From assembly GCA_001543015.1 (NCBI GenBank), contig LFLC01000057.1, positions 27,457 to 91,456 of the forward strand: DNA of 64,000 nucleotides. The letters run 5' to 3'. Position 1 is the stretch's first letter, and the number at the start of each line of letters is the position of its first letter. A model generated the notes under the pieces. That model was given only the letters and a program-made list of their open reading frames with translations. It had not been told where the DNA came from and did no database searches. Below are positions 7,383 through 35,638 of the stretch, piece by piece. The stretch is from Nitrosopumilus sp. LS_AOA (GTDB lineage: Archaea > Thermoproteota > Nitrososphaeria > Nitrososphaerales > Nitrosopumilaceae). Made by a program: the position numbers and the translations under genes.

Positions 7383-8942
7383 TTAGTTTTGAATTTGTAA
7401 AATTCCTTGTTTTATTAAAAATTCTAATCCTTGAACAAATGTCTCATCATCAATGGAGCCATCAGCCCACCAACCTACATTATTTCTAATCCAATCAGGA
7501 ATTTCCTGTGATTCAGAACTTTCTTGTTGTGTTTGAGGAATTATAATAATATTATTATTTATCAAATATTCAATTCCTTTGATGAAAGTATTATCATCAA
7601 TTTGTTGCTCTGACCACCATAATGCATTATTTCTAATCCAATCAGGAATGGGAATGGAGTTATTTTGAGTGATTCTATTAATTACAATAGGAATTTTAGT
7701 TGTAGCAAGATGGTTATCATCTAAATTTTTGAAATTTAGATAAACTATACCTGAAATATCTTTAGGAATAAAAAACTCGGCAGTATTATGTTCTTCTTTT
7801 GAATCAGTACTAGTTCCACTTTGTTCAAAAATTACTATATCATTTTGAGTAATAGAAAAGTCATAAATTGCAGCAATTGGTCTATTCTTTAAGAAAATAT
7901 CTGTAACATCAAATAATATTTTTGCATTTGAATTAGATTTTAGATTCTCTGGTTCCCAAGATACAAGAATTCTAAACTGCCCATTTTCTGTAACAGAACT
8001 CAAATGAGAATAATCACGGTCAGGTTTTATTATAAAATCCATTTCATCAGTACTGGGATTACTTTGAAAAATATTCAATAATTCTTTTTGATAAATAATA
8101 AAATGTACTATCCGTTCATGAGAGATAAAATCATCAATGTTTACAACATCTTTAGATAATTCAATTCCATTTACATACATTGTAAAACCAGATACTAGTA
8201 AATCACCAAAGTCTTTTGAAATTTGTAATTCTTCATGGACAACAGATGTTTGATTAATGTTTGATTGACTCCATTCAAAAGGCATGGAAAAACTAATCTC
8301 TTTTGAATTTGAATCATATTCAAAATCTGAAATTTCATCATAATACGAAATGGTGTAAATATTTTGTTCCCCAAAATTTGGATCAATAATACTATGTTTT
8401 GATGTTTGAGCAATTGAAATTCCTGCATTAAAGACTAGAGGTTTATCTAATTTTTTGGAATATCCATCTGCAGTAAGCACACTAATGTCAAATTTGTACA
8501 AACCACCCTCACTTAGTTTTGGTCCAATTACATGAACTATCCTACTTTCAAGTCCTAATAATGAACCAAAAAAATCATCACTGTTATTATCATCATCAAT
8601 TATTATTGGAATTGTATCTTCTGATACAAAATTAAAAACTATGAAACCATTATCTGCTTGAAATTCTTGCTCAAAAAGAAATGTTTCTCCACGTTCAGAA
8701 GTAATTAAAAAAGTTACATCTCGTAAGGTAATTTTTGAATCAAAATCAATTAATGAAATAGAAATTTGTTGATCATCATTAGTTTCAGGATTGTTTTGTG
8801 AAGATGAAACTTCCAAAGTAACTAATCGACCATCTAATTCAACGGGTGGAAAAGTTTCACTACCAAAGCCATGACCATATACATGATCTATTCCAAAAAA
8901 TAGAAAAAATATCAAAGATGTAAATAAAAATAAATTTTTCAA
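7383..8942 (-). CDS. Secreted protein, paralog 1 of an uncharacterised family. Mature N-terminus HGFG, with two C-terminal W-rich ~35-aa repeats.
   Basis: The ORF track starts it at 9035. An in-frame TTG at 8940-8942 gives a clean signal peptide MKNLFLFTSLIFFLFFGIDHVYG|HGFG and removes the overlap with 8944-9150. Motifs shared with 9184-10899 and 19278-21014: GGLYKF, FEYDSNSKEISFSMPFEWS, VVHEE, MYVNGIE and RIVHF. Confidence 0.7.
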   Translation of the reverse strand: MKNLFLFTSLIFFLFFGIDHVYGHGFGSETFPPVELDGRLVTLEVSSSQNNPETNDDQQISISLIDFDSKITLRDVTFLITSERGETFLFEQEFQADNGFIVFNFVSEDTIPIIIDDDNNSDDFFGSLLGLESRIVHVIGPKLSEGGLYKFDISVLTADGYSKKLDKPLVFNAGISIAQTSKHSIIDPNFGEQNIYTISYYDEISDFEYDSNSKEISFSMPFEWSQSNINQTSVVHEELQISKDFGDLLVSGFTMYVNGIELSKDVVNIDDFISHERIVHFIIYQKELLNIFQSNPSTDEMDFIIKPDRDYSHLSSVTENGQFRILVSWEPENLKSNSNAKILFDVTDIFLKNRPIAAIYDFSITQNDIVIFEQSGTSTDSKEEHNTAEFFIPKDISGIVYLNFKNLDDNHLATTKIPIVINRITQNNSIPIPDWIRNNALWWSEQQIDDNTFIKGIEYLINNNIIIIPQTQQESSESQEIPDWIRNNVGWWADGSIDDETFVQGLEFLIKQGILQIQN

Positions 8943-8943
8943 A

Positions 8944-9150
8944 CTATGTCCACTTGTTTGGATCTTTTTTACGAATTTCTTTTCCGTCAATAGTGATTTG
9001 ATCTTTTTCTTCAAAAACAGTATGCCATTTTCCATTATTTGGAAAAATCTTGTTCATTTCTTTGACTTTGTTATTAGTTGGTGCTTTGTTCATCAAAGCT
9101 CCCCATTTCATGTTTGGAACTTTTGGCATAATGTCATTGATATCTTTCAT
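8944..9150 (-). CDS. Hypothetical small hydrophilic protein (68 aa)
   Basis: An open frame between the two paralogs on the same strand. I recognise no motifs, so it may be non-coding. Confidence 0.25.
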   Translation of the reverse strand: MKDINDIMPKVPNMKWGALMNKAPTNNKVKEMNKIFPNNGKWHTVFEEKDQITIDGKEIRKKDPNKWT

Positions 9151-9183
9151 TACACTATCACTTTACAGAATTTATTTAAAAAC

Positions 9184-10899
9184 CTATGATTGTACACTAA
9201 GAATTCCTTCTTTGATCAAAAATTGAATTCCTTGAACAAATGATGAATCATCAATGGAGCCATCAGCCCACCAGCCTGCATTATTTTTAATCCATGCAGG
9301 AATTTCATTGGAAGTAGAACTAGTGCCTTGTGTGGTTGGTGGAATCTTTAAAACATCTTCTTTGATCAAAAATTGAATTCCTTGAACAAATGATGAATCA
9401 TCAATGGAGCCATCAGCCCACCAGCCTGCATTATTTTTAATCCATGCAGGAATTACTGCTGGAGATTGAATTTCAGGTGTAGTTGTTACAGTTTTTCCTA
9501 GATTTGGTCCAATCTCAATAATACCTGAACCAATTCCGGCATACTTTGGATTATAGTCTAATCCTGTGCCATAAGCTAGAATATCTATTCTGTATTGACC
9601 TTGAGATGGAACATAAATTTTTTGAATATCAATTCCTTCAACTGCAACAATACCTAGATTCAGAGGATCATCTCCAGAAAATCTTTCTAGTTCTTGATTA
9701 CTTGCATTATCAATAAATGAAATTGAATATCTAATGTCTTTGATTAAATCTCTGTTTTCATTAAAAAATGTAATTTCAAAAGGTACATCATCACCTGCAC
9801 CATAATTTCCATCCCATGAAATATTTACTGTAGTTGGAACTTGTTCATTTTGAATGTCAACTAGATAAAATTCAGTTGAACTCTTTGATACTTCACTAAG
9901 TGGAACTAATTTCAAATTCATCTTTTTGTTATCATAATTATCTGAACCTAATGTTTCATTGATTTTTTGTAACTCATTTTTTGTAATTAAGAAATGAACA
10001 ATATTTGTGTCATCATATGAATAAGGATCATTTAGTAATGCTCTTTGATCAATTTCTACACCATTAACATATCCTTTGAATTGTTTTCCTTCTGCATAGG
10101 GTGCAAATGATTTTGGAACTCTAACTTCTTCATGTACTACTTGTACCAAATTAACATAATCTGGACTCCAATCAAATGGCATATCAAATGAGATTGAATT
10201 ATCTGATTCATCAAATTTAAAATTATCAATATCATCATAGTATGTTTTTACAACAACTGGAACTTCAGCATATGCGGTTTGAATAAAAAAGTCTTGTTCT
10301 TGTGCAACACTAACAAAAGTATCATAACTTAGCATATCAGCAACTAAAGTTCTTGGGCTAGTTGCAGCTTCAATGTTAACTTTGATGTTGTATAATCCAC
10401 CTTTTACAAATATTGGACCTGTGATAGAGGGTCTTGCACAAATATCCAAATTATCATCATTACATGCTACACCGTATACGTATAGAGCACCAGGAGCACT
10501 AACATGCTCTGAACCACCATAAGTTGTACATTGATGAAGATTAACTGCATCACATCCAGATTGTGGTTTAATTTTTACATCTAATCTTCCATCATCATCA
10601 TAAAAAAAATTTCTAGCTAAAAGTTCACCACTTTGCCATAATTCCACTCTAAATGTAACTTGATCAAGATTTTTGTCAGTTAATGTATCAAAGAAACGTA
10701 TCTGCATATTTGCAGAATCAATTTCTCCAACTGTGATATCAGATGGAGATAATTGTGTACGTACAGTTACTTCCATATCACCAAATGATATTGGTTCAGC
10801 TTGATCTCCACCTAATCCATGTCCAAATGCATTTGGAAGAACGGTAGAAATCGAGAAAATACCAACAACTATGGCTAATAATGCAAACTTGGCATACAT
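9184..10899 (-). CDS. Secreted protein, paralog 2. Mature N-terminus HGLG, a Cys-rich insert, and two identical C-terminal W-rich repeats.
   Basis: Signal peptide [26 protein letters not shown]|HGLGGD. Family motifs: [37 protein letters not shown] and NIVHF. The C-terminus is 2x [32 protein letters not shown]. Confidence 0.8.
9207..9304. repeat. Copy 1 of a perfect 98-bp direct repeat (copy 2 at 9357-9454)
   Basis: Base-by-base comparison shows the two copies are identical. The period is 150 bp. Each encodes the W-rich module of paralog 2. Confidence 0.95.
9357..9454. repeat. Copy 2 of the perfect 98-bp direct repeat
   Basis: Identical to 9207-9304. Confidence 0.95.
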
Positions 10900-11004
10900 A
10901 GCACAAATTAGTCAATTCCATATTTAAAGCTGGTATAGTATTTCTATTCATGAAAATTTTTCAAACAAAGTAGAATTTTTATTTGTCATACTAAAATTGA
11001 AATT

Positions 11005-11832
11005 ATGAAAATTTTGTTGGTATTGTTACTTGTTACATTTATGATAATTCCAGCTTTTGCTGAAACACAAACTTTACCAACAGAGCAAGGAACATTAGAT
11101 GTAAAACTAACATATGATACAATAGAACAAGACATTCTAAATAAAATTGGTATTGAATTTATTAATCCGCAAACACAAAAGATACAAATTCATATTGATT
11201 ACATAGTTACAGTTTCAAAAAATAATGAAACAGTTTTTGGGCCCACACAATTAATTCACACGTCTGAAGGAGCTGTAAAAATCCCAATTGAATTTAATCT
11301 TGGTGAAGGTACATATTCTATGAATATTGAAGTACAGGGAATTTTATTTAATCCAATTCCACCAGAAACTGTTTCATTTGAGATTTCAGTAGGTGAGGCT
11401 TTTGCACAGCCAGATTCTGAAAATGGAGTAGCAGAAGATACTTCAAATGGAGGCGGTTGTTTAATTGCAACTGCAGCATTTGGTTCAGAATTAGCACCTC
11501 AAGTACAACAATTAAGAGAACTTAGAGATAATACTATTTTATCAACAGAATCTGGAACTGCATTTATGGCAGGATTTAATCAATTCTATTATTCATTTTC
11601 ACCAATAGTATCTGATTTGGAACGTGAAAGTCCAATTTTCAAAGAAGCAGTAAAACTAACACTAACTCCAATGATTTCTACTTTATCAATAATGACATTA
11701 GCTGAAGATGGTAATGAATCACAAGTATTAGGACTAGGAATTTCTGTAATTATACTTAACTTGGGAATGTACATTACAATACCTGCAATAGCTGGCTTTG
11801 TAATTAGTAAACGCATTAAATCAAGAAATTAA
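11005..11832 (+). CDS. Secreted beta-sandwich protein with a Cys-initiated conserved C-terminal domain (CLIATAAFGS...) and a terminal TM segment
   Basis: Signal peptide MKILLVLLLVTFMIIPAFA|ETQ. The C-terminal 125 aa are homologous to the C-terminus of 19278-21014. Its first 75 aa (GGGCLIATAAFGSELAPQVQQLRELRDNTIL...KEAVKLTLTPM) are nearly identical to it. The protein ends with a hydrophobic helix and then KRIKSRN. Confidence 0.75.
   Translation: MKILLVLLLVTFMIIPAFAETQTLPTEQGTLDVKLTYDTIEQDILNKIGIEFINPQTQKIQIHIDYIVTVSKNNETVFGPTQLIHTSEGAVKIPIEFNLGEGTYSMNIEVQGILFNPIPPETVSFEISVGEAFAQPDSENGVAEDTSNGGGCLIATAAFGSELAPQVQQLRELRDNTILSTESGTAFMAGFNQFYYSFSPIVSDLERESPIFKEAVKLTLTPMISTLSIMTLAEDGNESQVLGLGISVIILNLGMYITIPAIAGFVISKRIKSRN
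11449..11673 (+). repeat. Left arm of a 225-bp inverted repeat (partner 19431-19655)
   Basis: My manual codon-by-codon alignment against the reverse complement of 19431-19655 found 15 mismatches in 225 nt. Exact runs of 51, 51 and 54 bp are present. Confidence 0.9.
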
Positions 11833-11934
11833 TCCTTTAACTCCAACAATCTGGACTTTCGCATTACATTCATCTAAAACATTGTCAAAATGATAAATCT
11901 ATCTTAACAAGGATTGAAACATTTCATATACCAA

Positions 11935-12318
11935 TTAAAGTGCAACTAGTTTTACAGTGTCCATGTTTTTGTTTGTCTGAAAATCTTTAGTCATTGTAGA
12001 TACTTTTTCTGCATCACCATCAATTACAAATAGTTCCATGCATTTTTCTTTGTCAATTTTACTATGAAGATGTGTGATGATTAGATCCTCAAAATTATGA
12101 GTAATTCCAGAAACTGCATGATCAAATTTATCATTGTGTACTACCAAAAGAATTGCATGAATATTTCCAGACAAATCTGATTTTTGTTTTTCTTCAGAAA
12201 CAAATGCTCTAATTCCTGCTCTGATTGCCTCAGACCTACCTGAGAATCCCATAGATAATTGTAATTTGTCTAATTCTGAAAGAATTTCATCATTTAATGA
12301 GATTGAAACTATGGGCAT
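11935..12318 (-). CDS. nikR: NikR-family (ribbon-helix-helix + ACT-like) metal-responsive repressor
   Basis: The RHH N-terminus is MPIVSISLNDEILSELDKLQLSMGFSGRSEAIRAGIRAF. The C-terminal His/Cys cluster reads VVHNDKFDH...ITHLHSKIDKEKC. Confidence 0.8.
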   Translation of the reverse strand: MPIVSISLNDEILSELDKLQLSMGFSGRSEAIRAGIRAFVSEEKQKSDLSGNIHAILLVVHNDKFDHAVSGITHNFEDLIITHLHSKIDKEKCMELFVIDGDAEKVSTMTKDFQTNKNMDTVKLVAL

Positions 12319-12324
12319 ATGCCT

Positions 12325-12368
12325 AATGTTATTAATTATCTTATAAGTTTAGCAGTCAATGTTATTAA
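12325..12368. promoter_or_regulatory. Two exact 11-bp direct repeats AATGTTATTAA (12325-12335 and 12358-12368) in the nikR/ABC divergent promoter. Candidate operator.
   Basis: The repeats are 33 bp apart start to start. The first lies 7 bp upstream of the nikR ATG. The second abuts the TTTATAG/TTTATTAATAA TATA-like region upstream of the 12409 start. Confidence 0.4.
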
Positions 12369-12408
12369 GATTTTATAGATTTATTAATAATTTGCATTAA
12401 CTTGGTTT

Positions 12409-13305
12409 GTGAATATTCAAGTAAAAGCTGCAATAATTGCTATAGTAATTATAATTCCATTAAGCTCAATTGCAGTTTATGGGACTGATTCAAATCAACA
12501 ATTTACAAAAAACGATAATTCAAAATTACAAGTAATTTCTTCATTTTATCCCCTCCATGAATTCTCTCAACATGTAGGTGAGGACAAAGTTGATGAAATA
12601 TTACTTGTTCCAGTTGGAGTTGAACCACATGATTGGGAACCAACAATTAAAGATGTACAAAGAATGCAACAATCTGATCTAATTATAATAAATGGAATTG
12701 GATTTGAAAATTGGGTTGACAAATTAGATGAAACAAATTATCAAGGTGTAATAGTTGATACAAGTAATAATATTTCAGATGAGGAATTAATTAAAAATTC
12801 TGGAGATCCACATATATGGCTAAATCCAGTTTATGCAAAAATCCAAGTACAAAATATTGCAAATGCTTTTTCTATTTCAGATCCTGAAAATCAACAATTC
12901 TATCAATCAAATGCTGTAAAATATATCAAAGAGTTAGATTCACTTGATACAAAAATTCAAAATGAATTATCTGATTGTACTCGTGATTTTGTTTCTTTTC
13001 ATGATGCGTTTTCATACTTTGCAAAAGAATATGATCTAAACCAACATACTATCATTTCATCAAATGGTATGCATGGAGATACTACTGCAAAAAAATTAGA
13101 AAATGTAATTACAACTGCAAAAAAATTTAACATTACAGTAATTTTTAGTGAAGAAAATACTGATACTAGAACATCAAAAATTATTGCACATGAAATTGGT
13201 GGAAAAGTTTTATTGTTATCTACTTTGGAAGTTTCTTCAAATGGAAATTATATTTCCAAAATGACTGAAAATCTTGAAAATCTAAAGGAGGCCCTATGTC
13301 AATAG
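12409..13305 (+). CDS. Metal ABC importer, cluster-9 (TroA/ZnuA-like) substrate-binding protein
   Basis: GTG start and an N-terminal anchor helix. Ligand-region motifs are FYPLHEF, EPHDWEP, DPHIWLNP and SFHDAFSYF. There is no His-rich loop. Confidence 0.8.
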   Translation: MNIQVKAAIIAIVIIIPLSSIAVYGTDSNQQFTKNDNSKLQVISSFYPLHEFSQHVGEDKVDEILLVPVGVEPHDWEPTIKDVQRMQQSDLIIINGIGFENWVDKLDETNYQGVIVDTSNNISDEELIKNSGDPHIWLNPVYAKIQVQNIANAFSISDPENQQFYQSNAVKYIKELDSLDTKIQNELSDCTRDFVSFHDAFSYFAKEYDLNQHTIISSNGMHGDTTAKKLENVITTAKKFNITVIFSEENTDTRTSKIIAHEIGGKVLLLSTLEVSSNGNYISKMTENLENLKEALCQ

Positions 13306-14015
13306 TTGAAATTAATAATCTCACAGTTCATTATCCAGATGTAAAGGCCCTTGATGATGTGAGCTTTGTAGTTAATGAAGGCGACTTTTTAGGCATAATT
13401 GGACCAAATGGTGCTGGAAAATCCACTCTTTTTGATTGCATGTTGAGGCTAAATACCAAATACAAAGGGATAATCAAATTTTTTGGAAAAGATATTAGAG
13501 ATTCAAAAAATTATCTTAAAGGAATTGGATATGTTCCACAAAAACCAATTTTTGAAAAAAACTTCCCAGTTACAGTAAACGATGTTGTACAAATGGGGTT
13601 AAGAAATGAATCTGATAAAGAAAAAATTGATGAAATATTACAACAGTTATGGATACATGAATTACGTAACAGAAGAATTGGTGAGTTATCTGGAGGACAA
13701 CAACAACGAGTCTTTATTGCAAAAGCATTAGTGCATGATCCAAAAATTTTGATTCTAGATGAACCAGTAGCTGGAATTGATCAACAAAGTATTGAATTAT
13801 TTTATAGTATTTTACGTGAACTAAATTCTAAACAAAAAATTACAATTATTTGGTCTTCTCATGATCTTGATGCCGTAAATAAACTTGCAAATCATGTAGC
13901 ATGTTTGAATAGAACATTATTTTTTCATGGTGAATCTGAAAAATTCTTTTCTGATGACAAGCTTGTAAAGCAATATTCTGAAGCATCAATGCAAGAACAC
14001 ATGCATCATCATTAA
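13296..14015 (+). CDS. Metal ABC importer ATPase (ZnuC-like)
   Basis: Walker A GPNGAGKST, signature LSGGQQQR and Walker B ILILDEP. The C-terminus is a His tail, MHHH. Confidence 0.85.
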   Translation: MSIVEINNLTVHYPDVKALDDVSFVVNEGDFLGIIGPNGAGKSTLFDCMLRLNTKYKGIIKFFGKDIRDSKNYLKGIGYVPQKPIFEKNFPVTVNDVVQMGLRNESDKEKIDEILQQLWIHELRNRRIGELSGGQQQRVFIAKALVHDPKILILDEPVAGIDQQSIELFYSILRELNSKQKITIIWSSHDLDAVNKLANHVACLNRTLFFHGESEKFFSDDKLVKQYSEASMQEHMHHH

Positions 14016-14017
14016 TC

Positions 14018-14836
14018 ATGTCATTTGAAATTCTAACATACAGCTTTATGCATAGAGCATTAATTTCTGGAATTGCAATTGCAATTCTTTGTTCAGTTGT
14101 TGGCTTATTTTTAGTATTGAGACGTTATTCATTATTTGGTGATGCAATAGCTCATTCATCATTTGGTGGAATTGCATTAGGTTTGCTAGCAGGTGTTTAT
14201 CCATTGTTGACTGCTTATGGTGTTTCAATAATTAGTGCATTAATAATTACAAAAATCAAGGACAAATACAATATTTCAGGCGATGCATCAATTGCTGTAC
14301 TTTTATCCTCAGGAATAGCAGTTGGGCTCGTAATTATTGGTTTTTCAGGTGGATTTACGATTGATATCTTTAGTTTTCTATTTGGAAGTATTCTTTTAGT
14401 TAGTGTAGATGATACTATTCTAATTTTATCATTAACTGGAATCATTCTAATTGTAATTTTATTATTGTATAGACAAATTCTTTATTCCACATTTAATGAA
14501 GAACAAGCTAAAGTTAGTGGTATCCCTGTTGAAAAAATTAATTATTTGATTGTATTTATGGCAGGAATTACTGTGGTGACAGCAGTTCAACTTGTAGGTG
14601 TTTTGTTAATTTCAGCCCTATTTGTAATTCCAAATGTTACTGCAATAATGTATGGAAAAGGTTTCAAACAGACAGCAATAATCTCAATGAGTTTCTCTGT
14701 TTTTTCTGTTGTTGCAGGAATTTTAATTTCATATATTTTTGACATTACTCCTGCAGGAACCATTGTTTTATTATCAATTGGATTACTTGGAGGAACAATG
14801 GGGATAAAGTCAGCAGGACTATTATCTAAGAATTAA
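14018..14836 (+). CDS. Metal ABC importer permease (ZnuB-like)
   Basis: 272 aa and polytopic. It follows the ATPase gene directly, and the ABC-3 family pattern is present (GDAIAHSSFGG). Confidence 0.85.
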   Translation: MSFEILTYSFMHRALISGIAIAILCSVVGLFLVLRRYSLFGDAIAHSSFGGIALGLLAGVYPLLTAYGVSIISALIITKIKDKYNISGDASIAVLLSSGIAVGLVIIGFSGGFTIDIFSFLFGSILLVSVDDTILILSLTGIILIVILLLYRQILYSTFNEEQAKVSGIPVEKINYLIVFMAGITVVTAVQLVGVLLISALFVIPNVTAIMYGKGFKQTAIISMSFSVFSVVAGILISYIFDITPAGTIVLLSIGLLGGTMGIKSAGLLSKN

Positions 14837-17606
14837 TTAAAGAGTTTAGTCTTCTTTTATCTTGAACACTTTTTACATAAAACAATGATGTTGCAATAAT
14901 TCCTAATGCAACTAGTGGTGATGCAATCTCTGTATATTTTAATTCAAAATTACTAGTTGTTTGTATTTGTGATGGAATAACTGGAATTTCTGTTATTTTT
15001 ATTGTTCCAAGCTTGTTTGATTGCTGTTCTACAAACCATACATTATCATTTCCATCTGTTGTCATGAATTGTACAAATGATGTTTCAGTTGGAATTGGAA
15101 TCTCGATCAAATTATTGTTATCTGGATCATATACTCCGATATTATCTACTGTGTGTTCTGCAAACCAAATATTCCCATATTTGTCAAGTGTCATTCCAAA
15201 TGGTAATGCATCTTTATTTGGTACTGAAATTTTCTCAAATGTCTCTAAAACGGGGTTAAATTTGGTAATTGCTGAGCCTGTATGTTCTGCAATCCATAAA
15301 TTTCCATCATTATCAAACATTAATGCTTCAGGGGACTGAAGTGGAGAGTCACTTGAGAATTGAGTAATTTGATTATTTTCAGGATTAATGAATCCAATTT
15401 TACCTGTACCTGATGTAGAATACCATATTTTTCCATCATCATTTACTGTTAAAGCAAATGGAAATGACTCTCTTTCTAATTGTATTACTTCAAATGTATC
15501 TAATTCTGGTAAATATTTTACAATACTATCTTTGTTTATGATACTTATCCAAATATTCCCATCAAAATCTGCTTGAATAAAGATTGGAGCGTTATCGGAT
15601 ATTGTAGGATCTAGATTTGGAATTGTTTTTGTTGTAATTTGTTTATTTTCTGGATCAAAGAAACCAATTTGATTTCTTGGAGTATCTACAAACCATATTT
15701 TTCCACTATTATCTTGTGTTAGAAACATTGTAGCTAGACCATCAAATGAATATGAAGTAAATTCTTGTGAATCAAGTGAAAATTGCCACAATCGTGGAGA
15801 TGATGCATCACTTAACCAAATAGAATTTTTTCCATCATACAATGGGAAAAGAGGTTTAGCATCTTTTGGTAATTCATATTCAATTATTTGAGTTTGAATG
15901 TTTACTAGTTGTGGTTTTATCAGTAAATTCATTATTTTTGATTCGTTAGCATTCTCAGTTCTTTGTGCTTCAACTTCTAATAACCAAACTCCAGAAAATC
16001 CAAATGTTATTTCACCTTGAAATTCAGTTGGTCTGTTCTCACTTTGTTTGATTAAATTCATTGGGATTTCAATTGGAGAGATATTTTTTAATGGATTTGA
16101 AATTTTTACTTTAATTTGATTTGAATCTGAAAGTGGTTTATTTTCAAAGTCACTCACTTTAACTAGAATTGTATTTACACCACTTGAAAATGGTGAAATT
16201 TCAATGCCAAATTTTGCTTTTTCAGTAAATTCGATAGTCTTAAAACCATAGATTATTTCTTGTGCTTCAACTTTTTGAATTTCTCCTGCTGGAAGTGTTC
16301 CATTAGTTAGTAATGCCACTACTCCTAATAGAGCAATTCCCAATACTACATCAACTTTGAGTGATCTCTTTAGTTTTCTATGAACAGAAATTTTTCCTGA
16401 CTGAATATTTTTTTCTGCATTTTTTTGTATTCGAAACTGGAAAAATCCACCAAACCCAATTATTATTGCAGCAATTGCAATTTTTAAAATAATTAATTGG
16501 CCATAAACGGATTCTGTAATTAATCCTACATCACTTTCTAAGAACCACATTAGAGTTGGTCCTGTAATTAATACAACACCAATTGCAATAATAAAAGCAA
16601 TTGAAAATCTTGGAATAAGTAATAAACTCATTTTCTCTCGTTTTGATTCTTTTAACTGTGCAAATGTTGGTAATAATGTGAAAACAAAATAGAATATTCC
16701 ACCTATCCATACTGCTGAAACTAAATTATGTATGTAATCTAAAACAAGTGCAGGTGTTTCTCCACTAGCTGCACCATGTCCTATTAAACTTGAAGTTCCA
16801 ATTAATACAAGCATTGCTACTAACATTGATATTTGATTTTTCTTTGATAGAACTTTTTTCCTATTCAATCCAAACCAAATTCCCAGTAAAATTACCGTAA
16901 TTGTCATTCTAATGATCCAAATGTTTCCAAAATCGGTTTGAATTGCATCAAATACTGATGCTTCTAATCTAATAGATTGAATAGCAATCATCAAAATATT
17001 TGAAATAAAAATTAAAATTAGTCCTATACCTGTAAGTGTCATAAATTTTCTATGATGGAATGTTTCTATCTTGTCTAATTCTTCTCGAATTAATTGCTTG
17101 TTTTGTGTACCCCAAATTATTAGAGATGAAATTATTACTCCTAAAACGATTGTTTGACCAACAAGACCTGGAAACCTAGCTCCTGCTTCGGGTAAAAATA
17201 CTATTTCTGATGGTCTTTCAAATTCTAATGATGCAGAATCTACTATAGCATTACCTATTGCAAACAAGAATGCATCAGGAACTAAATGCCCATCAACTTT
17301 TGAGAGAACTTTAGTTGTTACAGTATAAACTCCGTCTTCTAATGGAGGAGTTGTAACAATAAGAGATAATTCATCTTCAAAGTAATCGGTATCTTTGTTA
17401 TCTATTTGATTTCCATTATTATCAAGTACTTTTACTTCACTAAAGTTTATGTCAATTGGTTCTGAAAAAAATATGATTACTTCTGAAGTACCCGTTGGAG
17501 CATTAGATACTAAGCTTGGAATAGTTTCTTCTGTAAATGGATGTGCATATACAAGTGGAATTGATATTGATGAAAATACAAGTAATAGTATTAGCAATCC
17601 TCTCAT
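14826..17606 (-). CDS. CopC-CopD fusion extended by a YtkA-like Ig domain, a Vgb/NHL-like beta-propeller and a C-terminal TM anchor
   Basis: 926 aa. The signal peptide is ...IPLVYA|HPFTEE. The CopC domain includes DGVYTVTTKVLSKVDGHLV. About 8 TM segments form the CopD-like region. Repeated propeller blades include IWFVDTPRNQIGFFDPENKQIT, IWYSTSGTGKIGFINPENNQIT, LWIAEHTGSAITKFNP, IWFAEHTVDNIGVYDPDNNNL and VWFVEQQSNKLGTI. Confidence 0.85.
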   Translation of the reverse strand: MRGLLILLLVFSSISIPLVYAHPFTEETIPSLVSNAPTGTSEVIIFFSEPIDINFSEVKVLDNNGNQIDNKDTDYFEDELSLIVTTPPLEDGVYTVTTKVLSKVDGHLVPDAFLFAIGNAIVDSASLEFERPSEIVFLPEAGARFPGLVGQTIVLGVIISSLIIWGTQNKQLIREELDKIETFHHRKFMTLTGIGLILIFISNILMIAIQSIRLEASVFDAIQTDFGNIWIIRMTITVILLGIWFGLNRKKVLSKKNQISMLVAMLVLIGTSSLIGHGAASGETPALVLDYIHNLVSAVWIGGIFYFVFTLLPTFAQLKESKREKMSLLLIPRFSIAFIIAIGVVLITGPTLMWFLESDVGLITESVYGQLIILKIAIAAIIIGFGGFFQFRIQKNAEKNIQSGKISVHRKLKRSLKVDVVLGIALLGVVALLTNGTLPAGEIQKVEAQEIIYGFKTIEFTEKAKFGIEISPFSSGVNTILVKVSDFENKPLSDSNQIKVKISNPLKNISPIEIPMNLIKQSENRPTEFQGEITFGFSGVWLLEVEAQRTENANESKIMNLLIKPQLVNIQTQIIEYELPKDAKPLFPLYDGKNSIWLSDASSPRLWQFSLDSQEFTSYSFDGLATMFLTQDNSGKIWFVDTPRNQIGFFDPENKQITTKTIPNLDPTISDNAPIFIQADFDGNIWISIINKDSIVKYLPELDTFEVIQLERESFPFALTVNDDGKIWYSTSGTGKIGFINPENNQITQFSSDSPLQSPEALMFDNDGNLWIAEHTGSAITKFNPVLETFEKISVPNKDALPFGMTLDKYGNIWFAEHTVDNIGVYDPDNNNLIEIPIPTETSFVQFMTTDGNDNVWFVEQQSNKLGTIKITEIPVIPSQIQTTSNFELKYTEIASPLVALGIIATSLFYVKSVQDKRRLNSLINS

Positions 17607-17700
17607 TTACTCTTACGATCATCTTTGATAATTTAAACAGTTTATCAATAATTCGAGATTTATCCCATTTCACGTAAAGATAATAATATGTAATTTCCAA

Positions 17701-18339
17701 TTGGATATAGTGAAGATTATACTCTTTGTCTTTATTGGATTATTATTTTCAATTGGAATGATTATACCTTCATTTGCTCATACAACAGTTCATGTTGAAG
17801 AATATAGTATTGAAGTTGGTTGGGGAATTGAACCACCTGTTGTAGGAATTAGAAATGAAATTGTCTTTAAAATTACTGAATCCGGAGAAAATGAAGGAAC
17901 TTATTCTGGAGTAACTAGTGTCTTCAAAGATGTTGATGCAACTGTGATGTTTGGAGGTATATCAAAAAAAATAGATATTAATTCAGATCCAAGACCTGGA
18001 TATTATTTTTCACCGATTATTCCAACTAAAATAGGAACTTACATGGTAGAACTAAAAGGTGAACTAAGAGGGATTCCAATTGATATTAAAATTCCAGTTG
18101 AAGATATAGAATCTACTGCAGTACTGGATTTTCCACCTACAAATAGTGAAGGAACTGCTGATGTAACTGCTCTAAAGAATGCAATATCCTCTTTACAACA
18201 AGATGTTTCGAAACTAAAATCTGGTAAAACTTCTGTTCCATCTGATGGTGGAGCAGCTTATGACTTTGCAATATTTGGATTATCAATTGCTGCAGCAGCT
18301 ATCATTCTGTCGATAATTGCTTTAATAAAAAGAAAATAA
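17701..18339 (+). CDS. Secreted, C-terminally TM-anchored beta-sandwich protein with mature N-terminal His. Possible YcnI-like Cu-binding protein.
   Basis: TTG start (a GTG at 17710 is also possible). The signal peptide is ...IIPSFA|HTTVHVEEY. The C-terminus AAYDFAIFGLSIAAAAIILSIIALIKRK is a TM anchor. The gene lies divergent from the CopCD gene. Confidence 0.55.
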   Translation: MDIVKIILFVFIGLLFSIGMIIPSFAHTTVHVEEYSIEVGWGIEPPVVGIRNEIVFKITESGENEGTYSGVTSVFKDVDATVMFGGISKKIDINSDPRPGYYFSPIIPTKIGTYMVELKGELRGIPIDIKIPVEDIESTAVLDFPPTNSEGTADVTALKNAISSLQQDVSKLKSGKTSVPSDGGAAYDFAIFGLSIAAAAIILSIIALIKRK

Positions 18340-18352
18340 AAAAGAGGGATTC

Positions 18353-19219
18353 CTAAAATCTTGGAACAACTCTAGATTTTGCAGTTACTGCTACGATGCT
18401 TATGATTGCGACAGCTAGTATCATCATTGCAATTGTACCAAATTCTGGGACAATTTGTGATGTAGCTACTGAACCTAATGGTCCAGTCCAATCTGCTTCA
18501 GCATCTGGTGGGCCAATTCCTAGAGAAACTATTTCGATATCAATTGGACTATCATCTGATCCAATAGCATCAACCATGTGACTTGTAGTCATTTCCATGG
18601 AGTGTGCAGTTTCTTTGTAAATTTCTTCACCGTTTTGTGTTGCAGTTATTTCATAGTTGACATGTAATTCACTGAATTCAAGATCCACTTGAGTTCCGTC
18701 ATCTACTACTGAGTCGGTAATTGTTACCATCAATACTGCTTCTGCTGCTTCTGCTGCTTCTGCTGCTTCTGCTGCTTCTGCTGCTTCTGCTGCTTCTGCT
18801 GCTTCTGCTGCTTCATCTGCATGTGCTTCTTGTACTATGATTGTGCCAAACATGTATGATGCATGTAATGAACAATAGTACGGAACTTCACCTACAGTAG
18901 TTGCAATCCATTCACCAGACTGTCCTGGTTCTAGAACACCAGTATCAAATTCTTCAGTTGGATTAGGTGTAAATCCATCCACAGTTCCTGCTGTAAATGA
19001 ATGAAATCCTGTAGGATTTGAGAATATTACTTTTCCACCAACATCAACTGTTGCAGTACTTGGAGTATAACATTCTGATCCACAATCCGGACTCATTGCA
19101 TCTTCTGATGTAGCGATTGTAACTTCTGCATGATCTGCAAAAGCAGCTGGAGTTGATGAAATCATCACAGCTGCGATAGCAAATAGTACAAAGAAAGAGC
19201 AAATTGCTTTAGTCTTCAT
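18353..19219 (-). CDS. Blue (type 1) copper protein: cupredoxin domain, (AEA)n linker, second beta domain and PEFG-CTERM sorting signal
   Basis: The signal peptide ends ...TPAAFA. T1Cu ligands are present in GFHSF ... YYCSLHASYMFG (His...Cys-x2-His-x4-Met). The tail IVPEFGTIAMMILAVAIISIVAVTAKSR matches the thaumarchaeal PEFG-CTERM pattern. Confidence 0.85.
   Translation of the reverse strand: MKTKAICSFFVLFAIAAVMISSTPAAFADHAEVTIATSEDAMSPDCGSECYTPSTATVDVGGKVIFSNPTGFHSFTAGTVDGFTPNPTEEFDTGVLEPGQSGEWIATTVGEVPYYCSLHASYMFGTIIVQEAHADEAAEAAEAAEAAEAAEAAEAAEAAEAVLMVTITDSVVDDGTQVDLEFSELHVNYEITATQNGEEIYKETAHSMEMTTSHMVDAIGSDDSPIDIEIVSLGIGPPDAEADWTGPLGSVATSQIVPEFGTIAMMILAVAIISIVAVTAKSRVVPRF
18737..18812. 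repeat. 9-bp tandem repeat (TGCTTCTGC, about 8 units) encoding the (AEA)n linker
   Basis: Read directly at 18737-18812. It translates on the minus strand to AEAAEAAEAAEAAEAAEAAEAAEA. Confidence 0.9.
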
Positions 19220-19277
19220 GATATTGATTACTATTACTCATACATAAAAACTTCACTAGAATTTCAGAAAATGGAAT

Positions 19278-21014
19278 TTAGTTTTTTCTAATCTGGTATA
19301 CCTTTAAAATTCCTAATAATGGAATTCCGACATACATTCCTGCATTTAATATAATCAAACTAATTCCATATCCTAACATGTCTTGTTCTGAATCAATATC
19401 AACATAATTCAATAGAGATAGTGATGATAACATTGGAGTTAGTGTTAGTTTTACTGCTTCTTTGAAAATTGGACTTTCACGTTCTAAATCAGCAATTACT
19501 GGTGAAAATGAATAATAGAATTGATTAAATCCTGCCATAAATGCAGTTCCTGATTCTGTTTGTAGAATTGTATTATCTCTAAGTTCTCGTAATTGTTGTA
19601 CTTGAGGTGCTAATTCTGAACCAAATGCTGCAGTTGCAATAAGACAACCTCCACCTTCAGCAGTCTCTTCTACGACTTCTTCTTCAGTAGTCTCTTCCAT
19701 GACTTCCTCTACCATTTTTTTCTCTGTAGATTCCGCTACAACAACAAAGCCAAACTCTGTTTCTTGTCCTGTATTTCTAATGTTTTCAAATTTAATTATA
19801 GTTGGACCTGTCTGATCCTCACTAAAAGTGAATTTTTCAAAATCACCTCCAACTTGTGCTAGTCCTGTTGTACGAAAAATTTCATTTCCATTTTGAATTA
19901 TTACAAATGTAAAATCAGAACTTCTTAGAGGCTCATTTGTTCTTCCATCTCGAATAGTAAAAATAAAATTTGTAGGAACTCCGGGTTCAACATTTAATGG
20001 ATCCCATGAAAGATTAATTTTGAAGTCCTCACTTTTTGTATATGCTTCTAAAGGAAATGCAATTTTTTTACTTGTAGATAATGTAAAAGTAATTTTATCA
20101 GGAATTGGTTCTTCAGATTTTTTCATTTCATTTTTTAGAAATTTGAGATGATCTTGTAATAAAACCATGTGAACGATTCTTTCATCTTCTACTGTATAAT
20201 CATCAACAGATACTGAAGATTTGAATAATTGAATTCCATTAACATAACCAGAATAACTAGGACTCAAAAACTCTGAAAAGTCTTTTGGAAAATGTGTTTC
20301 AACATGAACTACAGATACATGAGACATTTGTTTTTCACTCCAATCAAATGGCATATCAAATGTAATCTGTTTATTCTCAGAATCATACTCAAAATTAGAA
20401 AGTGTATCAAAATATGATTTTAAACTAAATTCTATATCATTATTTTCAGTGTCTTTTTGAATAAATGAAACAGTCTCAACTAAAGTCAAATCAACTTTAT
20501 AGACTTTAGAATTTTCAATAATGTTTGTTGGTTCATCGATAGTTCTTACTTCAATCTCAAAATTATACAAACCACCTGAATTAAACAGAGGTCCTGTGAT
20601 TTCTATTGGATTTGATTCAGTAGGATGCCAGGCTCCAAGAAGAGAGTCTTGTTCACCATGAATTGTAATTTTTTCTTCTTGCGTAGGTTTAACATTAATT
20701 GGTAAAATTCCATCTTCTGCAAAGAAATAGTTTCTAAAAATCATCTCGCCATTATGAAATAAACCAATTAGAAATGTTACATTTTTTGCAGTTTCGTCTG
20801 TTTCATCATCTATTGCAGTAATTGTGATTTGTTCTGATTCATTTTCAAAATACATTGGCATCTCAACTGTTACAGTCAAGCTTTTTCCTTGTACATCAAT
20901 TGATGAAATTGTTTCAATTCCCAATCCATGACCATATACGCTACTTGCAGGAAATAGCAAACAAACAACCATTACAAAAACTACAAATTTTGCTACAGCC
21001 AACATTATTTTCAT
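19278..21014 (-). CDS. Secreted protein, paralog 3. Mature N-terminus HGLG, an acidic linker, then a CLIATAAFGS-type C-terminal domain with a TM segment.
   Basis: The signal peptide is ...LLFPASSVYG|HGLGIE. Family motifs: [37 protein letters not shown] and RIVHM. The linker is EEVMEETTEEEVVEETAEGGG. The C-terminus is homologous to 11005-11832. Confidence 0.8.
   Translation of the reverse strand: MKIMLAVAKFVVFVMVVCLLFPASSVYGHGLGIETISSIDVQGKSLTVTVEMPMYFENESEQITITAIDDETDETAKNVTFLIGLFHNGEMIFRNYFFAEDGILPINVKPTQEEKITIHGEQDSLLGAWHPTESNPIEITGPLFNSGGLYNFEIEVRTIDEPTNIIENSKVYKVDLTLVETVSFIQKDTENNDIEFSLKSYFDTLSNFEYDSENKQITFDMPFDWSEKQMSHVSVVHVETHFPKDFSEFLSPSYSGYVNGIQLFKSSVSVDDYTVEDERIVHMVLLQDHLKFLKNEMKKSEEPIPDKITFTLSTSKKIAFPLEAYTKSEDFKINLSWDPLNVEPGVPTNFIFTIRDGRTNEPLRSSDFTFVIIQNGNEIFRTTGLAQVGGDFEKFTFSEDQTGPTIIKFENIRNTGQETEFGFVVVAESTEKKMVEEVMEETTEEEVVEETAEGGGCLIATAAFGSELAPQVQQLRELRDNTILQTESGTAFMAGFNQFYYSFSPVIADLERESPIFKEAVKLTLTPMLSSLSLLNYVDIDSEQDMLGYGISLIILNAGMYVGIPLLGILKVYQIRKN
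19431..19655 (-). repeat. Right arm of the 225-bp inverted repeat (partner 11449-11673)
   Basis: See the left arm. Identity is about 93%, including synonymous positions. Confidence 0.9.
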
Positions 21015-30516: not shown

Positions 30517-31308
30517 CTAATTTTCATAAAGATTTATTGTAACTTTTGTAATCCATGGTTTTAGTTCATCAGGAAAAATTACCAATAATCCGCTATCTTT
30601 TTGGATATTTTTACAGGTACCACTGTAGCTTTGTTTGTTTTGTCCATAACAACCGAGTTCAGTGTATGAATTAAACTCTGAATTTCCAAAGTTTTCACGT
30701 TGTATAGATGACGAAACAAAGTATACATCAAATCCTAAATCCTTGTTATCGGTTTTTATGCTATAATCATATGATGTTATTTCCTTAGATGTACAAATAG
30801 GGAAAAATTGTGCAAATCCATTTTTAATTTTTGATTGTTGTTTTGAATTATCATAATTTTTGTTTTCTATATTTGGATAAACAGAGATATCAGGATTTAT
30901 GCTGAGTTGTTTTCCTTGCACATATTCAATTTCATGACGAATAGTATCCACAGCTTTTCTGTAAATCATGGGTTGCCATTCTTCTTGACAGTCACTAAAT
31001 TCATGTTTTAATTCAACAAATGATTTGTCATTAATTTCTTGAAGTTGATTTGTATTGTATTCTTTAGATTCTGCATCAAATACAGGATTGATATTTTCAT
31101 CTTTATCTGATTTATACCAAGAGTTTGTTATATCAAAAATAATATTTTTTGAATCACTATCCCATTCGGATAATAAATGAACATACACGGTATACTTGTT
31201 TACTACTTGATTAGATTCTGATTCAAAAATCAAATGACCAAAAAAGGCATTTACAAATATTATAGAAAATGCAATTACTGGAAGAATCATATAAAAAATT
31301 GGCTTCAT
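30517..31308 (-). CDS. Hypothetical N-terminally anchored or secreted protein
   Basis: I chose the start at MKPIFYMILPVIAFSIIFVNAFFG, a signal or anchor segment. Several Cys residues are spaced through the protein. I recognise no family. Confidence 0.55.
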   Translation of the reverse strand: MKPIFYMILPVIAFSIIFVNAFFGHLIFESESNQVVNKYTVYVHLLSEWDSDSKNIIFDITNSWYKSDKDENINPVFDAESKEYNTNQLQEINDKSFVELKHEFSDCQEEWQPMIYRKAVDTIRHEIEYVQGKQLSINPDISVYPNIENKNYDNSKQQSKIKNGFAQFFPICTSKEITSYDYSIKTDNKDLGFDVYFVSSSIQRENFGNSEFNSYTELGCYGQNKQSYSGTCKNIQKDSGLLVIFPDELKPWITKVTINLYEN

Positions 31309-31437
31309 GTCATTCCTCCAAAATTTACAAATATTTGAAATTTGGCAATACAATAGATGAATTGATGAAATATCTTCAAAGTATAAGAAAAATTTAAAAT
31401 TAGAAAATGTTATCATCTAGAAAGTTTTCTTTATTTT

Positions 31438-34075: not shown

Positions 34076-35638
34076 CTATTCGTTAACGTATGCTCTTTCG
34101 CCATGCTGTGCCAAATCGAGACCAATCTCCTCTTCTTTAGGAGTGACTCTGATTCCGCCAGGCCATACGGCATCCATTACTTTGAGGATTACAAGGGTAA
34201 CACCAAAGGAATAACCTACTGATATTACAGCACCAATGATGCTGATTGCTTGCTGTTCCATTCCTTCTGCAGTTCCTGTCCATGCACCAATACCGTCTCC
34301 AGTATCCCATACATGTGGACTAGCTAATGTACCAGTCAAAATTGCACCTGTAAGACCACCCATTCCGTGTACTCCCCATACATCTAATGCGTCGTCCCAT
34401 TTACGTGCGTTCTTGAATGCTACTGCTGCATAACAAATTGTTCCAGCTGCAATACCAATTATAATCGAAGCCATTGGACCTACCCAACCTGAAGCTGGAG
34501 TGATTGCAACCAATCCTGCTACTGCACCTGATGCAGCACCAACAATACTTGGTTTGCCTGTATGAGCCCATGACATAAGGACCCATGTTATCACTGCCAT
34601 ACCAGTCGCGGTATTTGTGACAGTCCATGCACTTACGGTAATGCCGTCTACCATTACTTCACTTCCTGCGTTGAAACCAAACCATCCAAACCAGAGTATT
34701 GCTGCTCCCAGCACTACCATTGGGATATTGTGTGGCTCCATTGGCACTTTGCCATATCCAAGACGTCTGCCTAAGATTAGCGCTCCTGCCAACGCGGAGA
34801 ATCCTGAAGTAATGTGTACTACAGTACCACCAGCAAAGTCTAATGCGTACGATGGTGATAGATCTGGATCGAGGTCAATTGAACCTCCTCCTATGTATCC
34901 TCCTCCCCAAACCCAATGTGCTATTGGGTCATAAACGAAGGTTCCCCATATGAGTACGAATATCATCAATGCGCTGAATTTGACTCTGTCAATCAAACCA
35001 CCAATAATTAGAACTGGTGTAATGATTGCGAAGGTTCCCTGGAACATTGCAAATAGTTGGTGAGGTACTGTACCTGGCCAACCTTGACTACAATAGTCTC
35101 CGTCCTTCATCGCGTTCATTTGATAAGCATTAGACCATGTATCTGCACACGGACCTACCTCACCTAGAGGTGCCCATGCTGAGACTTGATTAAAGCCAAC
35201 ATAATCTAAATTACCCATGAACATATTTGCTTCTGAGTCAATTCCGCCGAATGCTAGTGAGTAACCCCATAGTACCCATTGTACTGACATTAGGCCCATA
35301 ACAATTAGGGTCATACCAAGTACGTTGACGATGTTCTTTGATCTGGCTAATCCGCCATAAAAGAAACCGACTCCGGGTGACATGAAGAGTACCATTGATG
35401 TTGCTGTTAGCATCCATGCCATATCTCCTGTGTCTACAAGACAAGGTAGCATGCCGCCTTCGCCATCATCGTACCAACATTCGTTAGGATTACCAGTGTA
35501 AATTCCACTGGTACCTGCGACGTATCCGTCCATACCATCATCAACGCTTTGTGCAAATGCTTGTGACATTGCACCAGCTGCTGTGATAGATACTGCGGCT
35601 ACAAGTAATAGAGCATACTTGTAGTTCCTAGAATTCAT
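34076..35638 (-). CDS. amt: Ammonium transporter (Amt family) with N-terminal signal peptide
   Basis: 520 aa. The motifs DFAGGTVVHITSG, FGWFGFNAGS and VHGMGGLTG are present. The signal peptide is ...AMSQAFA|QS. Confidence 0.95.
   Translation of the reverse strand: MNSRNYKYALLLVAAVSITAAGAMSQAFAQSVDDGMDGYVAGTSGIYTGNPNECWYDDGEGGMLPCLVDTGDMAWMLTATSMVLFMSPGVGFFYGGLARSKNIVNVLGMTLIVMGLMSVQWVLWGYSLAFGGIDSEANMFMGNLDYVGFNQVSAWAPLGEVGPCADTWSNAYQMNAMKDGDYCSQGWPGTVPHQLFAMFQGTFAIITPVLIIGGLIDRVKFSALMIFVLIWGTFVYDPIAHWVWGGGYIGGGSIDLDPDLSPSYALDFAGGTVVHITSGFSALAGALILGRRLGYGKVPMEPHNIPMVVLGAAILWFGWFGFNAGSEVMVDGITVSAWTVTNTATGMAVITWVLMSWAHTGKPSIVGAASGAVAGLVAITPASGWVGPMASIIIGIAAGTICYAAVAFKNARKWDDALDVWGVHGMGGLTGAILTGTLASPHVWDTGDGIGAWTGTAEGMEQQAISIIGAVISVGYSFGVTLVILKVMDAVWPGGIRVTPKEEEIGLDLAQHGERAYVNE

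Follow-up and report, generated by a model that had tools for sequence, protein, structure and literature searches.

Positions 7383 to 21014 of the DNA considered here, a 64,000-nucleotide stretch of contig LFLC01000057.1 of Nitrosopumilus sp. LS_AOA (hereafter the window), carry what is probably a metal-homeostasis locus, built of three modules and not of one relay, and conserved throughout the Nitrosopumilaceae. The copper module would on balance consist of a type-1 cupredoxin, the small protein p212 (the orthologue of Nmar_1651) and a CopC-CopD fusion (CopCD); in a second module a NikR-family regulator appears to control the divergently encoded ZnuABC importer, whose ligands are zinc-type; and the third is likely, in our judgement, to be a cell-surface-tethered family specific to ammonia-oxidizing archaea (AOA), comprising the paralogues parA, parB and parK together with their one-domain relative CFI275. 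Taken as a whole, the locus is best explained, with somewhat better than even confidence, as a pair of proteins that captures and imports Cu(II) in the manner of YcnI/YcnJ, together with a cupredoxin, with a zinc-type importer beside it and surface proteins flanking. A copper role is well supported for two of the five secreted proteins predicted to begin with histidine, namely CopCD and p212, and the promoter element shared within the copper module is probably Cu-responsive.

The original prediction had described this stretch as a metal, probably copper, island in which every confidently called gene is metal-related or secreted, and in which five His-first proteins capture copper and relay it to CopD. 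All eleven open reading frames (ORFs) named there are present in the window at the coordinates given in Table 1, and their family assignments were upheld by Pfam and NCBIfam profile searches. The stretch is indeed a metal island but not a purely copper one, because NikR-ZnuABC looks zinc-type; regarding the proposed capture and relay, the copper module finds support, whereas the paralogues have neither a fold match to histidine-brace proteins nor the promoter element.

Conservation of the locus

The related loci come without exception from Nitrosopumilaceae (80/80), and the orthologue counts given below refer to loci from up to 80 GTDB species of this family. Almost all of the 35 loci of at least 20 kb contain the full gene set, usually in the order rhomboid, (parX), parA, parB, CFI275, cupredoxin, p212, CopCD, ZnuBCA, NikR, parK, LonN, PyrB, and the core is retained in two more distant lineages, so that the synteny expected across relatives was borne out. 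One of these, a high-GC lineage, shows LonN, parK, NikR, ZnuABC and CopCD, followed by one unidentified gene and then a 212-aa protein. In Ca. Nitrosotenuis, a two-domain multicopper oxidase precedes a member of the paralogue family, which lies near a CFI275 homologue, HtrA and CopCD, and a p212 homologue (AFA/HKTV; here and below the slash marks the predicted signal cleavage), DsbD and a YHS protein are also found near CopCD. A mobile element was considered and rejected, as the GC content is flat at ~0.30 and synteny in all relatives extends to the genes on either side (rhomboid, LonN, PyrB/PyrI, ATP synthase).

The CopC-CopD fusion

CopCD consists of a signal peptide, a CopC domain (~17256-17543) with the motif D105-G-H107 and a CopD membrane domain (~16305-17174), followed by an Ig-like segment, a Vgb-lyase/SGL-type beta-propeller (~14991-15842) and a C-terminal membrane helix; in the Nitrosotenuis orthologue the Ig-like segment gives a weak YtkA match before the propeller. 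PF04234 (CopC) matched residues 22-117 of the protein with 40.8 bits (cut-off 23.3) and PF05425 (CopD) scored 56.3 bits (cut-off 32.1), while NF033808 covered residues 145-434 with 85.7 bits, below its equivalog cut-off of 195. The protein is 94% identical to the CopCD of the metagenome-assembled genome NORP47.

Judged by alignment, the CopC domain has the full canonical His1/Asp/His Cu(II) ligand set: H22 (the mature His1), Asp105 and His107 are each present in 77/77 CopCD orthologues and correspond in alignment to His1 and the DGH motif in 5icu, the CopC of Methylosinus trichosporium. The best solved relatives of the domain are this protein and the CopC domain of Bacillus subtilis YcnJ, the latter being the best match (9c14, E = 6e-5). 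The invariant His1 and Asp-x-His ligands are those of the Cu(II)-only type of the CopC family (Lawton 2016, as cited in PMC7785015), and sequence inspection revealed no Met-rich Cu(I) site here either; unlike M. trichosporium CopC, which is a free periplasmic protein, the CopC of the window is fused to CopD and further domains. The view that the copper acquisition route of AOA is uncharacterised fits the marine strains, for which the route is open (PMC9723733); for soil AOA, CopC/D has already been proposed as copper uptake route, and in N. viennensis it is up-regulated under Cu limitation (PMC7785015).

p212 and the comparison with YcnI and YcnJ

p212 combines a signal peptide and His1 with an Ig-like beta-sandwich of ~110 residues, a helix and a C-terminal membrane anchor, in which a hydrophobic helix is followed by KRK, and the residues H1, Y9, G14, W15, E18 and P19 were invariant in two sequence sets. 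The gene is divergent from CopCD in essentially every genome. Over the 80 loci, 77 ORF calls are p212 orthologues, and in 67/75 loci a strict ORF rule places a divergent p212 no more than 400 bp from CopCD. In the structural model of p212 the beta-sandwich ectodomain (predicted local distance difference test, pLDDT, ~79) is followed by helices, the last of them hydrophobic. Among the best 50 Foldseek matches of this model in the PDB, the highest target-normalised template modelling (TM) scores belong to the CopC-like CrdA (0.59-0.63; E ~1e-3), and other matches are generic Ig/filamin domains. A literature search found no papers on the locus tags Nmar_1649-1654.

The copper module can be compared with the ycnKJI operon of B. 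subtilis (PMC8424229, PMC12362106), where YcnJ, too, joins CopC to CopD and has a Cu(II) site with an N-terminal His. YcnI and p212 both have a signal peptide, an N-terminal His, an extracellular beta-sandwich and a C-terminal membrane helix, both are encoded by a gene adjoining a CopC-CopD fusion, and both contain a conserved Glu and Trp, which in p212 lie near the N-terminus. YcnI binds Cu(II) via His27 (amine and imidazole), Glu50 and Trp137 (PMC8424229), and its exchange of Cu(II) with YcnJ-CopC has been demonstrated experimentally (PMC12362106). The archaeal genes differ from the operon in being divergent, in lacking a YcnK-type repressor and in including the cupredoxin in the module; moreover, the archaeal fusion adds a Vgb-lyase-like propeller, which YcnJ does not have, and a terminal membrane helix. 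From its architecture and gene context, p212 is most likely YcnI-like in its workings without being a member of the YcnI family.

In the mechanism that we propose, the N-terminal His of CopC and of p212 would chelate Cu(II) through its alpha-amine and imidazole, with Asp105 and His107 completing the ligand set in the CopC domain and the invariant Glu18, with Trp15 nearby, probably contributing in p212. Cu(II) would be exchanged between the tethered p212 and CopC domains and then, by analogy with B. subtilis YcnI/YcnJ, be passed to the CopD channel, and the CopCD, p212 and cupredoxin genes would stand under a common cis element similar to that of the N. viennensis Cu-limitation genes.

N-terminal histidines and their conservation

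In five secreted proteins a His directly follows the predicted cleavage motif [AVS]-[FY]-[AG], and the five sites are exactly those first quoted: VYG/HGFG (parA), AFG/HGLG (parB), VYG/HGLG (parK), VYA/HPFT (CopCD) and SFA/HTTV (p212). These sites are predicted from the -3/-1 pattern and from alignment, and three observations support them. The pattern holds in all orthologues, with A or G (one S) at position -1 and A, V, S, G or I at position -3; an identical x-[FY]-[AG]/ motif recurs in five secreted proteins of the window that do not begin with His (CFI275 AFA/ETQ, cupredoxin AFA/DHA, ZnuA VYG/TDS, Amt AFA/QSV and a DUF11-like protein SFA/QIT); and in alignment the CopC-domain His coincides with the first residue of mature CopC as crystallised (5icu). 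For parA, the TTG start at 8942 fits orthologue N-termini such as MKNLLLLSVLIF...VYGHGVG.

Conservation of His+1 was found among the orthologues at these loci, being complete for parA (33/33), parK (46/46), CopCD (77/77) and p212 (77/77) and nearly so for parB (41/46, with four Asp and one Gly), but it does not extend to the whole of the wider paralogue family, where 83/104 representatives begin with His. Of the six secreted families that the island encodes, three independent ones account for the five cases, which argues against a chance accumulation; two signal-peptide proteins elsewhere in the window begin with Gln.

Cupredoxin

The 288-aa protein is assigned as a type-1 cupredoxin on the basis of ligands in cupredoxin spacing, H73/C116/H119/M123, which are conserved in 65-67 of 67 orthologues; its Pfam score remains below the cut-off (Copper-bind E = 0.014, 16.2 bits vs 21.2). 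An AEAAE or (AEA)n linker leads to a second domain and a PEFG-CTERM anchor (TIGR04296, 47.8 bits). The protein also has a conserved Cys46/Cys50 pair, and its predicted mature N-terminus is Asp-His (~19130-19135), with Asp+1 in 61/63 and His+2 in 59/63 orthologues; the pairing of a free amine with a second-position His is known from Cu(II)-binding peptides such as Gly-His-Lys.

A conserved promoter element of the copper module

Alignment of the CopCD/p212 intergenic regions of 76 species contains a block at least 90% conserved, with the consensus TTCGAAATTTGTACCAAT (also written TTC-N6-TTTGTACCAAT or TTGTACCAAT). This consensus matches at 16/18 positions the motif TTCSGSMTTTGWACYANT, which was described upstream of Cu-limitation-induced genes of N. 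viennensis including copC/D_b (Reyes et al., PMC7785015). When the best match to TTCSGSMTTTGWACYANT was accepted with up to three mismatches, it was present in 64/76 CopCD/p212 intergenic regions and in 8/1520 shuffled controls, compared with 0/48 NikR-ZnuA and 0/39 parB-CFI275 intergenic regions. A weight matrix derived from the CopCD/p212 sites identified TTCTAAAGTTGTACCART ~50-90 bp upstream of the cupredoxin gene in ~29 loci and gave no match upstream of the paralogues or the Znu genes, and the Nitrosotenuis intergenic region has a TTGTACCAGT core. The window's own copies of the element, at CopCD/p212 and at the cupredoxin, are degenerate; a 98%-related genome retains the core.

The N. viennensis CopC/D cluster is likewise a CopC/D fusion amid exported proteins of unknown function. 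It differs from the present case in that PMC7785015 does not report the motif outside N. viennensis and gives the opposite response for the N. maritimus fusion, as well as in the degeneration of the window copy.

The NikR-ZnuABC module

NikR matched PF08753 (NikR_C; 49.3 bits, 5.8e-13) and PF01402 (25.3 bits) and stayed below the NCBIfam equivalog cut-offs. ZnuA matched PF01297 with 239 bits (E = 8.4e-71), and its closest solved relatives are the zinc-binding YcdH, ZnuA and AdcA, to which the motifs EPHDW, DPHIW and FHDAF align, so that, by its sequence, NikR-ZnuABC appears to import zinc and not copper. The divergent NikR-ZnuA region, in which AT palindromes of the TTATTAATAA type recur, is at least 90% conserved across 48 species and has no match to the copper motif; the palindromes overlap the promoters and are candidate operators for NikR. 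The znuB and copCD genes are convergent with 3' ends overlapping by 11 bp (14826-14836), a close spacing that recurs in related loci.

The surface-protein family of parA, parB and parK

The three paralogues share about 27-32% mutual identity and, except in their tails, match neither Pfam nor NCBIfam models, even at E <= 5. By profile search they belong to a family of 727 clusters at 50% identity, some members of which are located in loci without copper genes. Residue 1 of 104 family representatives is H in 83, D in 18, Q in one and N in one, with one gap; the orthologue groups of parA and parK have His throughout, but the expectation of an invariant His across the family fails with Asp in ~17%. 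Gly2 (102/104) and Glu/Asp6 (99/104) are strongly conserved, as are the near-invariant His209 and His254, both in domain 3, Glu211, Asp243, Asp175, Asn231 and an MPFxW motif, and the N-terminal domain contains no conserved His in the 104 representatives. The conserved X1-Gly2 (X = His/Asp) and the His209-x-Glu211/Asp243/His254 cluster may together form a metal site.

The AlphaFold model of parK shows four beta-sandwich domains (pLDDT 93.2; predicted TM score, pTM, 0.84), with a pLDDT of 85 for the first ten residues. A fold relationship with CopC, YcnI or PmoF, which had been anticipated, was not recovered: Foldseek matched only the MG-domain arrays of complement C3/alpha-2-macroglobulin, with TM ~0.2, and no lytic polysaccharide monooxygenase (LPMO), CopC, YcnI or PmoF. 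Local hhalign comparisons of the parK domains with CopC reached at most 23% probability and gave no link between paralogues, p212 and CopC. Within the family, in contrast to these comparisons, parK domain 1 aligned with domain 4 (95%), and the N-terminal domain of CFI275 (11005-11410) aligned with domain 4 (98%) and domain 1 (96%), by which CFI275 is recognised as a one-domain relative that does not begin with His; in Nitrosotenuis, too, it occurs alongside the family.

The members carry interchangeable anchors, namely PEFG-CTERM, CFI-box-CTERM (NF041770, 72-74 bits on the tails of CFI275 and parK) or a double 35-aa repeat, and anchor modules were evidently swapped within one family. Most parK orthologues are 452-457 aa long with PEFG-CTERM, and in the window lineage and a few more parK reaches 557-579 aa and ends in CFI-box-CTERM; the window parK tail (19278-19660) is 76% identical to that of CFI275. 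The C-termini of parA (7383-7600) and parB (9184-9460) contain two tandem ~35-aa repeats, IPxW[IV]KNNAxWWxxGxIxDxxFxxGIQ[FY]LIxxGI[IL], which have no Pfam model, occur also in a Nitrosotenuis homologue annotated by NCBI as 'peptidase' and may form a cell-envelope binding module.

The residues covarying with residue 1 (His/Asp) are 201, 207, 244, 259 and 262, all in domain 3. The Asp1 subfamily (18/104), which includes Ca. Nitrosotenuis and is largely monophyletic, has Arg201 in 16/18 representatives vs 4/83 in the His group, together with Pro244, and Asp1-Arg201 may represent a salt bridge or a remodelling of the site. This covariation is phylogenetically confounded, because the Asp set is nearly one clade and residues 195-265 often carry clade-specific changes in control clades as well.

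With the histidine-brace proteins (LPMO AA9/AA10, PmoF, X325) the paralogues share an N-terminal His after signal-peptide cleavage, and many AA10 LPMOs start His-Gly, as the paralogues do. They differ in having no fold match, no second conserved His in the N-terminal domain and, in part, Asp for His, a swap at residue 1 of which we know no case among characterised histidine-brace proteins. The signal-strapping DUF4198/DUF6702 proteins (PMC12537917) are secreted and of beta-sandwich fold as well, their N-terminal His being conserved only in part (79% and 65%), and illustrate that N-terminal-His proteins can prefer Ni; they bind Ni(II) and are mostly bacterial, whereas the window proteins have no Pfam match at E = 5.

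Alternative explanations

A number of results weigh against the import reading of the copper module. The transport direction of CopD is debated even in bacteria. The p212 model as a whole is moderately confident (mean pLDDT 66), and the Foldseek check for YcnI was negative, with none among its best 50 PDB matches; 17 members of the p212 family had no Pfam/DUF1775 match at E <= 5, a profile search of PDB sequences with the family gave only chance matches (E >= 0.3) and no YcnI, and hhalign found no profile similarity between p212 and CopC (0.2% probability). Membership of p212 in the DUF1775/YcnI family was rejected, as neither sequence, profile nor fold search provided a link. The element copy at 17652-17669 of the window is degenerate, with three mismatches and the core TTTGTACC changed to TTTATCCC, and the IUPAC Cu motif with up to three mismatches is not enriched in the window (7 vs 3.07 expected), so that the motif signal is seen only in the comparison across species. 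Furthermore, under Cu limitation N. maritimus down-regulates its CopC/D fusion and up-regulates a lone CopD (summarised by Reyes et al., PMC7785015), which argues against a simple low-Cu induction in marine AOA, and because of this reported response import need not be the sole role. It is conceivable, although somewhat unlikely, that the module does not serve cytoplasmic import at all but buffers or sequesters Cu(II) at the membrane or metalates extracytoplasmic cuproenzymes such as ammonia monooxygenase, plastocyanins and complex IV. Such a role would agree with CopC/D expression tracking complex IV in N. viennensis and N. maritimus (Reyes et al., PMC7785015), with the rise of CopCD under H2O2 in three Nitrosopumilus strains (PMC6593220) and with the co-located type-1 cupredoxin that has the promoter element in common; it sits less well with the link between CopD-family proteins and Cu accumulation in Pseudomonas, Bacillus and E. 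coli (summarised in PMC12362106) and with the lack of any further high-affinity Cu importer recognised in marine AOA (PMC9723733). We retain capture and import by p212 and CopCD as the preferred reading.

For the paralogues, the relay first envisaged, in which all five His-first proteins are histidine-brace Cu(II) binders that capture copper at the surface and hand it on to CopD, appears unlikely. It can draw on His1-Gly2 in 120/125 paralogue orthologues at the loci (83/104 family representatives), on Glu/Asp6, His209, Glu211, Asp243 and His254, whose near-invariance would make a second His available, on the parK model, in which the N-terminus appears packed and the domains fixed, on the position of the paralogues flanking the copper module in nearly all Nitrosopumilaceae, the Nitrosotenuis member following a multicopper oxidase, and on the suggestion of Reyes et al. 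that a non-CopC chaperone feeds CopD in N. maritimus (PMC7785015). The fold search that returned only MG arrays, the absence of profile similarity to CopC or p212, the N-terminal domain without conserved His, Asp1 in 18/104 representatives, the lack of the Cu-type promoter element upstream and the distant members in loci without copper genes all speak against it. A narrower version seems rather unlikely as well: the paralogues would be new AOA-specific cell-surface metalloproteins in which His1, with its alpha-amine and imidazole, folds onto His209/Glu211/His254 to give a composite brace-like Cu(II) site, acting as a high-affinity copper antenna in marine AOA that hands Cu(II) to the membrane-tethered p212/CopC, with the site remodelled or lost in the Asp1/Arg201 clade. 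That the composite site of His/Asp1, His209, Glu211 and His254 instead binds Zn or Ni and serves NikR-ZnuABC, not CopD, we regard as quite improbable; parK directly adjoins NikR-ZnuABC in the common gene order, ZnuA is zinc-type, the Ni(II)-binding DUF4198 genes neighbour NikR_C regulators (PMC12537917) and, in terms of coordination chemistry, it is typical for Zn, Fe, Mn and Ni sites that His and Asp replace each other as ligands, but the paralogues have no similarity to DUF4198 or any Pfam family at E = 5, ABC importers already have their own binding protein, here ZnuA, and in the common order the copper module separates parA/parB from the Znu genes. Structural or enzymatic envelope proteins without metal capture, in which X1-Gly2 plugs a pocket of domain 3 and the co-location is inherited synteny, are a real possibility, though short of an even chance. 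Four tandem beta-sandwiches with three interchangeable surface anchors, the size of the family with several copies per genome and members beside HtrA proteases or giant surface proteins would suit this explanation, as would Arg201 of the Asp1 clade, compatible with a salt bridge replacing the role of His1, and the rise of PEFG-CTERM proteins with S-layer proteins under H2O2 (PMC6593220), which is not mapped to the paralogue family. However, the near-invariant His209, Glu211, Asp243, His254, His/Asp1 and Glu/Asp6 resemble a ligand set more than a fold determinant, and the Asp1-Arg201 covariation is confounded by phylogeny.

Gene order of the window and neighbouring features

A 7.56-kb segment (11772-19332, NikR to cupredoxin) is inverted in the window relative to nearly all other Nitrosopumilaceae and is bounded by a 355-nt inverted repeat, 82% complementary, that is formed by the CFI-box tails of CFI275 and parK (Table 1). 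The inversion is also present in the independent assembly of a 98%-related genome (L084), while two other genomes (L085, L086) have a CFI-tailed parK in the ancestral order. The inverted repeats probably predate the inversion, and recombination between pre-existing repeats fits, because CFI-tailed parK occurs together with the ancestral order.

Outside the locus, the window encodes an Amt ammonium transporter (34076-35638, minus strand; E = 1e-108) with a predicted cleavable signal peptide, located in the only stretch of raised GC (0.41). An uncharacterised ORF without Pfam match (30517-31416, minus strand; internal-Met N-terminus MKPIFYMILPVIAFSIIFVNAFFGHLIFESE) might expose His upon cleavage, although the site is doubtful, as position -3 would be Phe.

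Table 1. Coordinates of the genes and other features of the metal locus in the window.
Feature	Position	Strand	Remarks
parA	7383-8942	-	surface-protein paralogue; TTG start; signal peptide; predicted mature HGFGSE, His codon 8871-8873
parB	9184-10899	-	surface-protein paralogue; predicted mature HGLGGD, His codon 10819-10821; C-terminal double repeat like parA
CFI275	11005-11832	+	one-domain paralogue relative; CFI-box-CTERM tail; predicted mature N-terminus Glu/Gln, not His
Inverted-repeat left arm	11417-11771	.	in CFI-box tail of CFI275; boundary of lineage-specific inversion
NikR-family ribbon-helix-helix metal regulator	11935-12318	-	divergent from znuA
NikR-ZnuA divergent promoter region	12319-12408	.	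TTATTAATAA-type AT palindromes
ZnuA-type substrate-binding protein	12409-13305	+	profile match; three His-containing ligand motifs
ZnuC-type ABC ATPase	13296-14015	+	
ZnuB-type ABC permease	14018-14836	+	convergent with CopCD
CopC-CopD fusion, 926 aa	14826-17606	-	predicted mature His1 codon 17541-17543
Degenerate promoter element copy TTCGAGATTTATCCCATT	17652-17669	+	CopCD/p212 intergenic
p212, orthologue of Nmar_1651	17701-18339	+	predicted mature HTTVHV, His codon 17779-17781
Type-1 cupredoxin (assigned by ligands), 288 aa	18353-19219	-	H73/C116/H119/M123; PEFG-CTERM
parK	19278-21014	-	surface-protein paralogue; predicted mature HGLGIE, His codon 20928-20930; four beta-sandwich domains, acidic linker
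Inverted-repeat right arm	19333-19687	.	in CFI-box tail of parK

Significance for copper acquisition in AOA

AOA have among the highest cellular copper demands measured and grow at picomolar Cu2+, and no high-affinity Cu uptake system has been recognised in the marine strains (PMC9723733), while the transcriptome comparison of AOA left open which chaperone feeds CopD (PMC7785015). The locus offers testable candidates for these functions in the YcnI-like p212 and the adjacent CopC-CopD fusion. As far as the literature shows, the YcnI-like partner, the promoter element across clades and the surface-protein family have not been described before. A cis element in common with the Cu-limitation regulon of soil AOA would tie together marine and terrestrial regulation, and the ligand-like residues of the unannotated 727-cluster surface-protein family can be directly tested for metal binding. 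Should the copper module work in the manner of YcnI/YcnJ, the hand-off of Cu(II) between tethered extracellular domains would extend from Firmicutes to Archaea.

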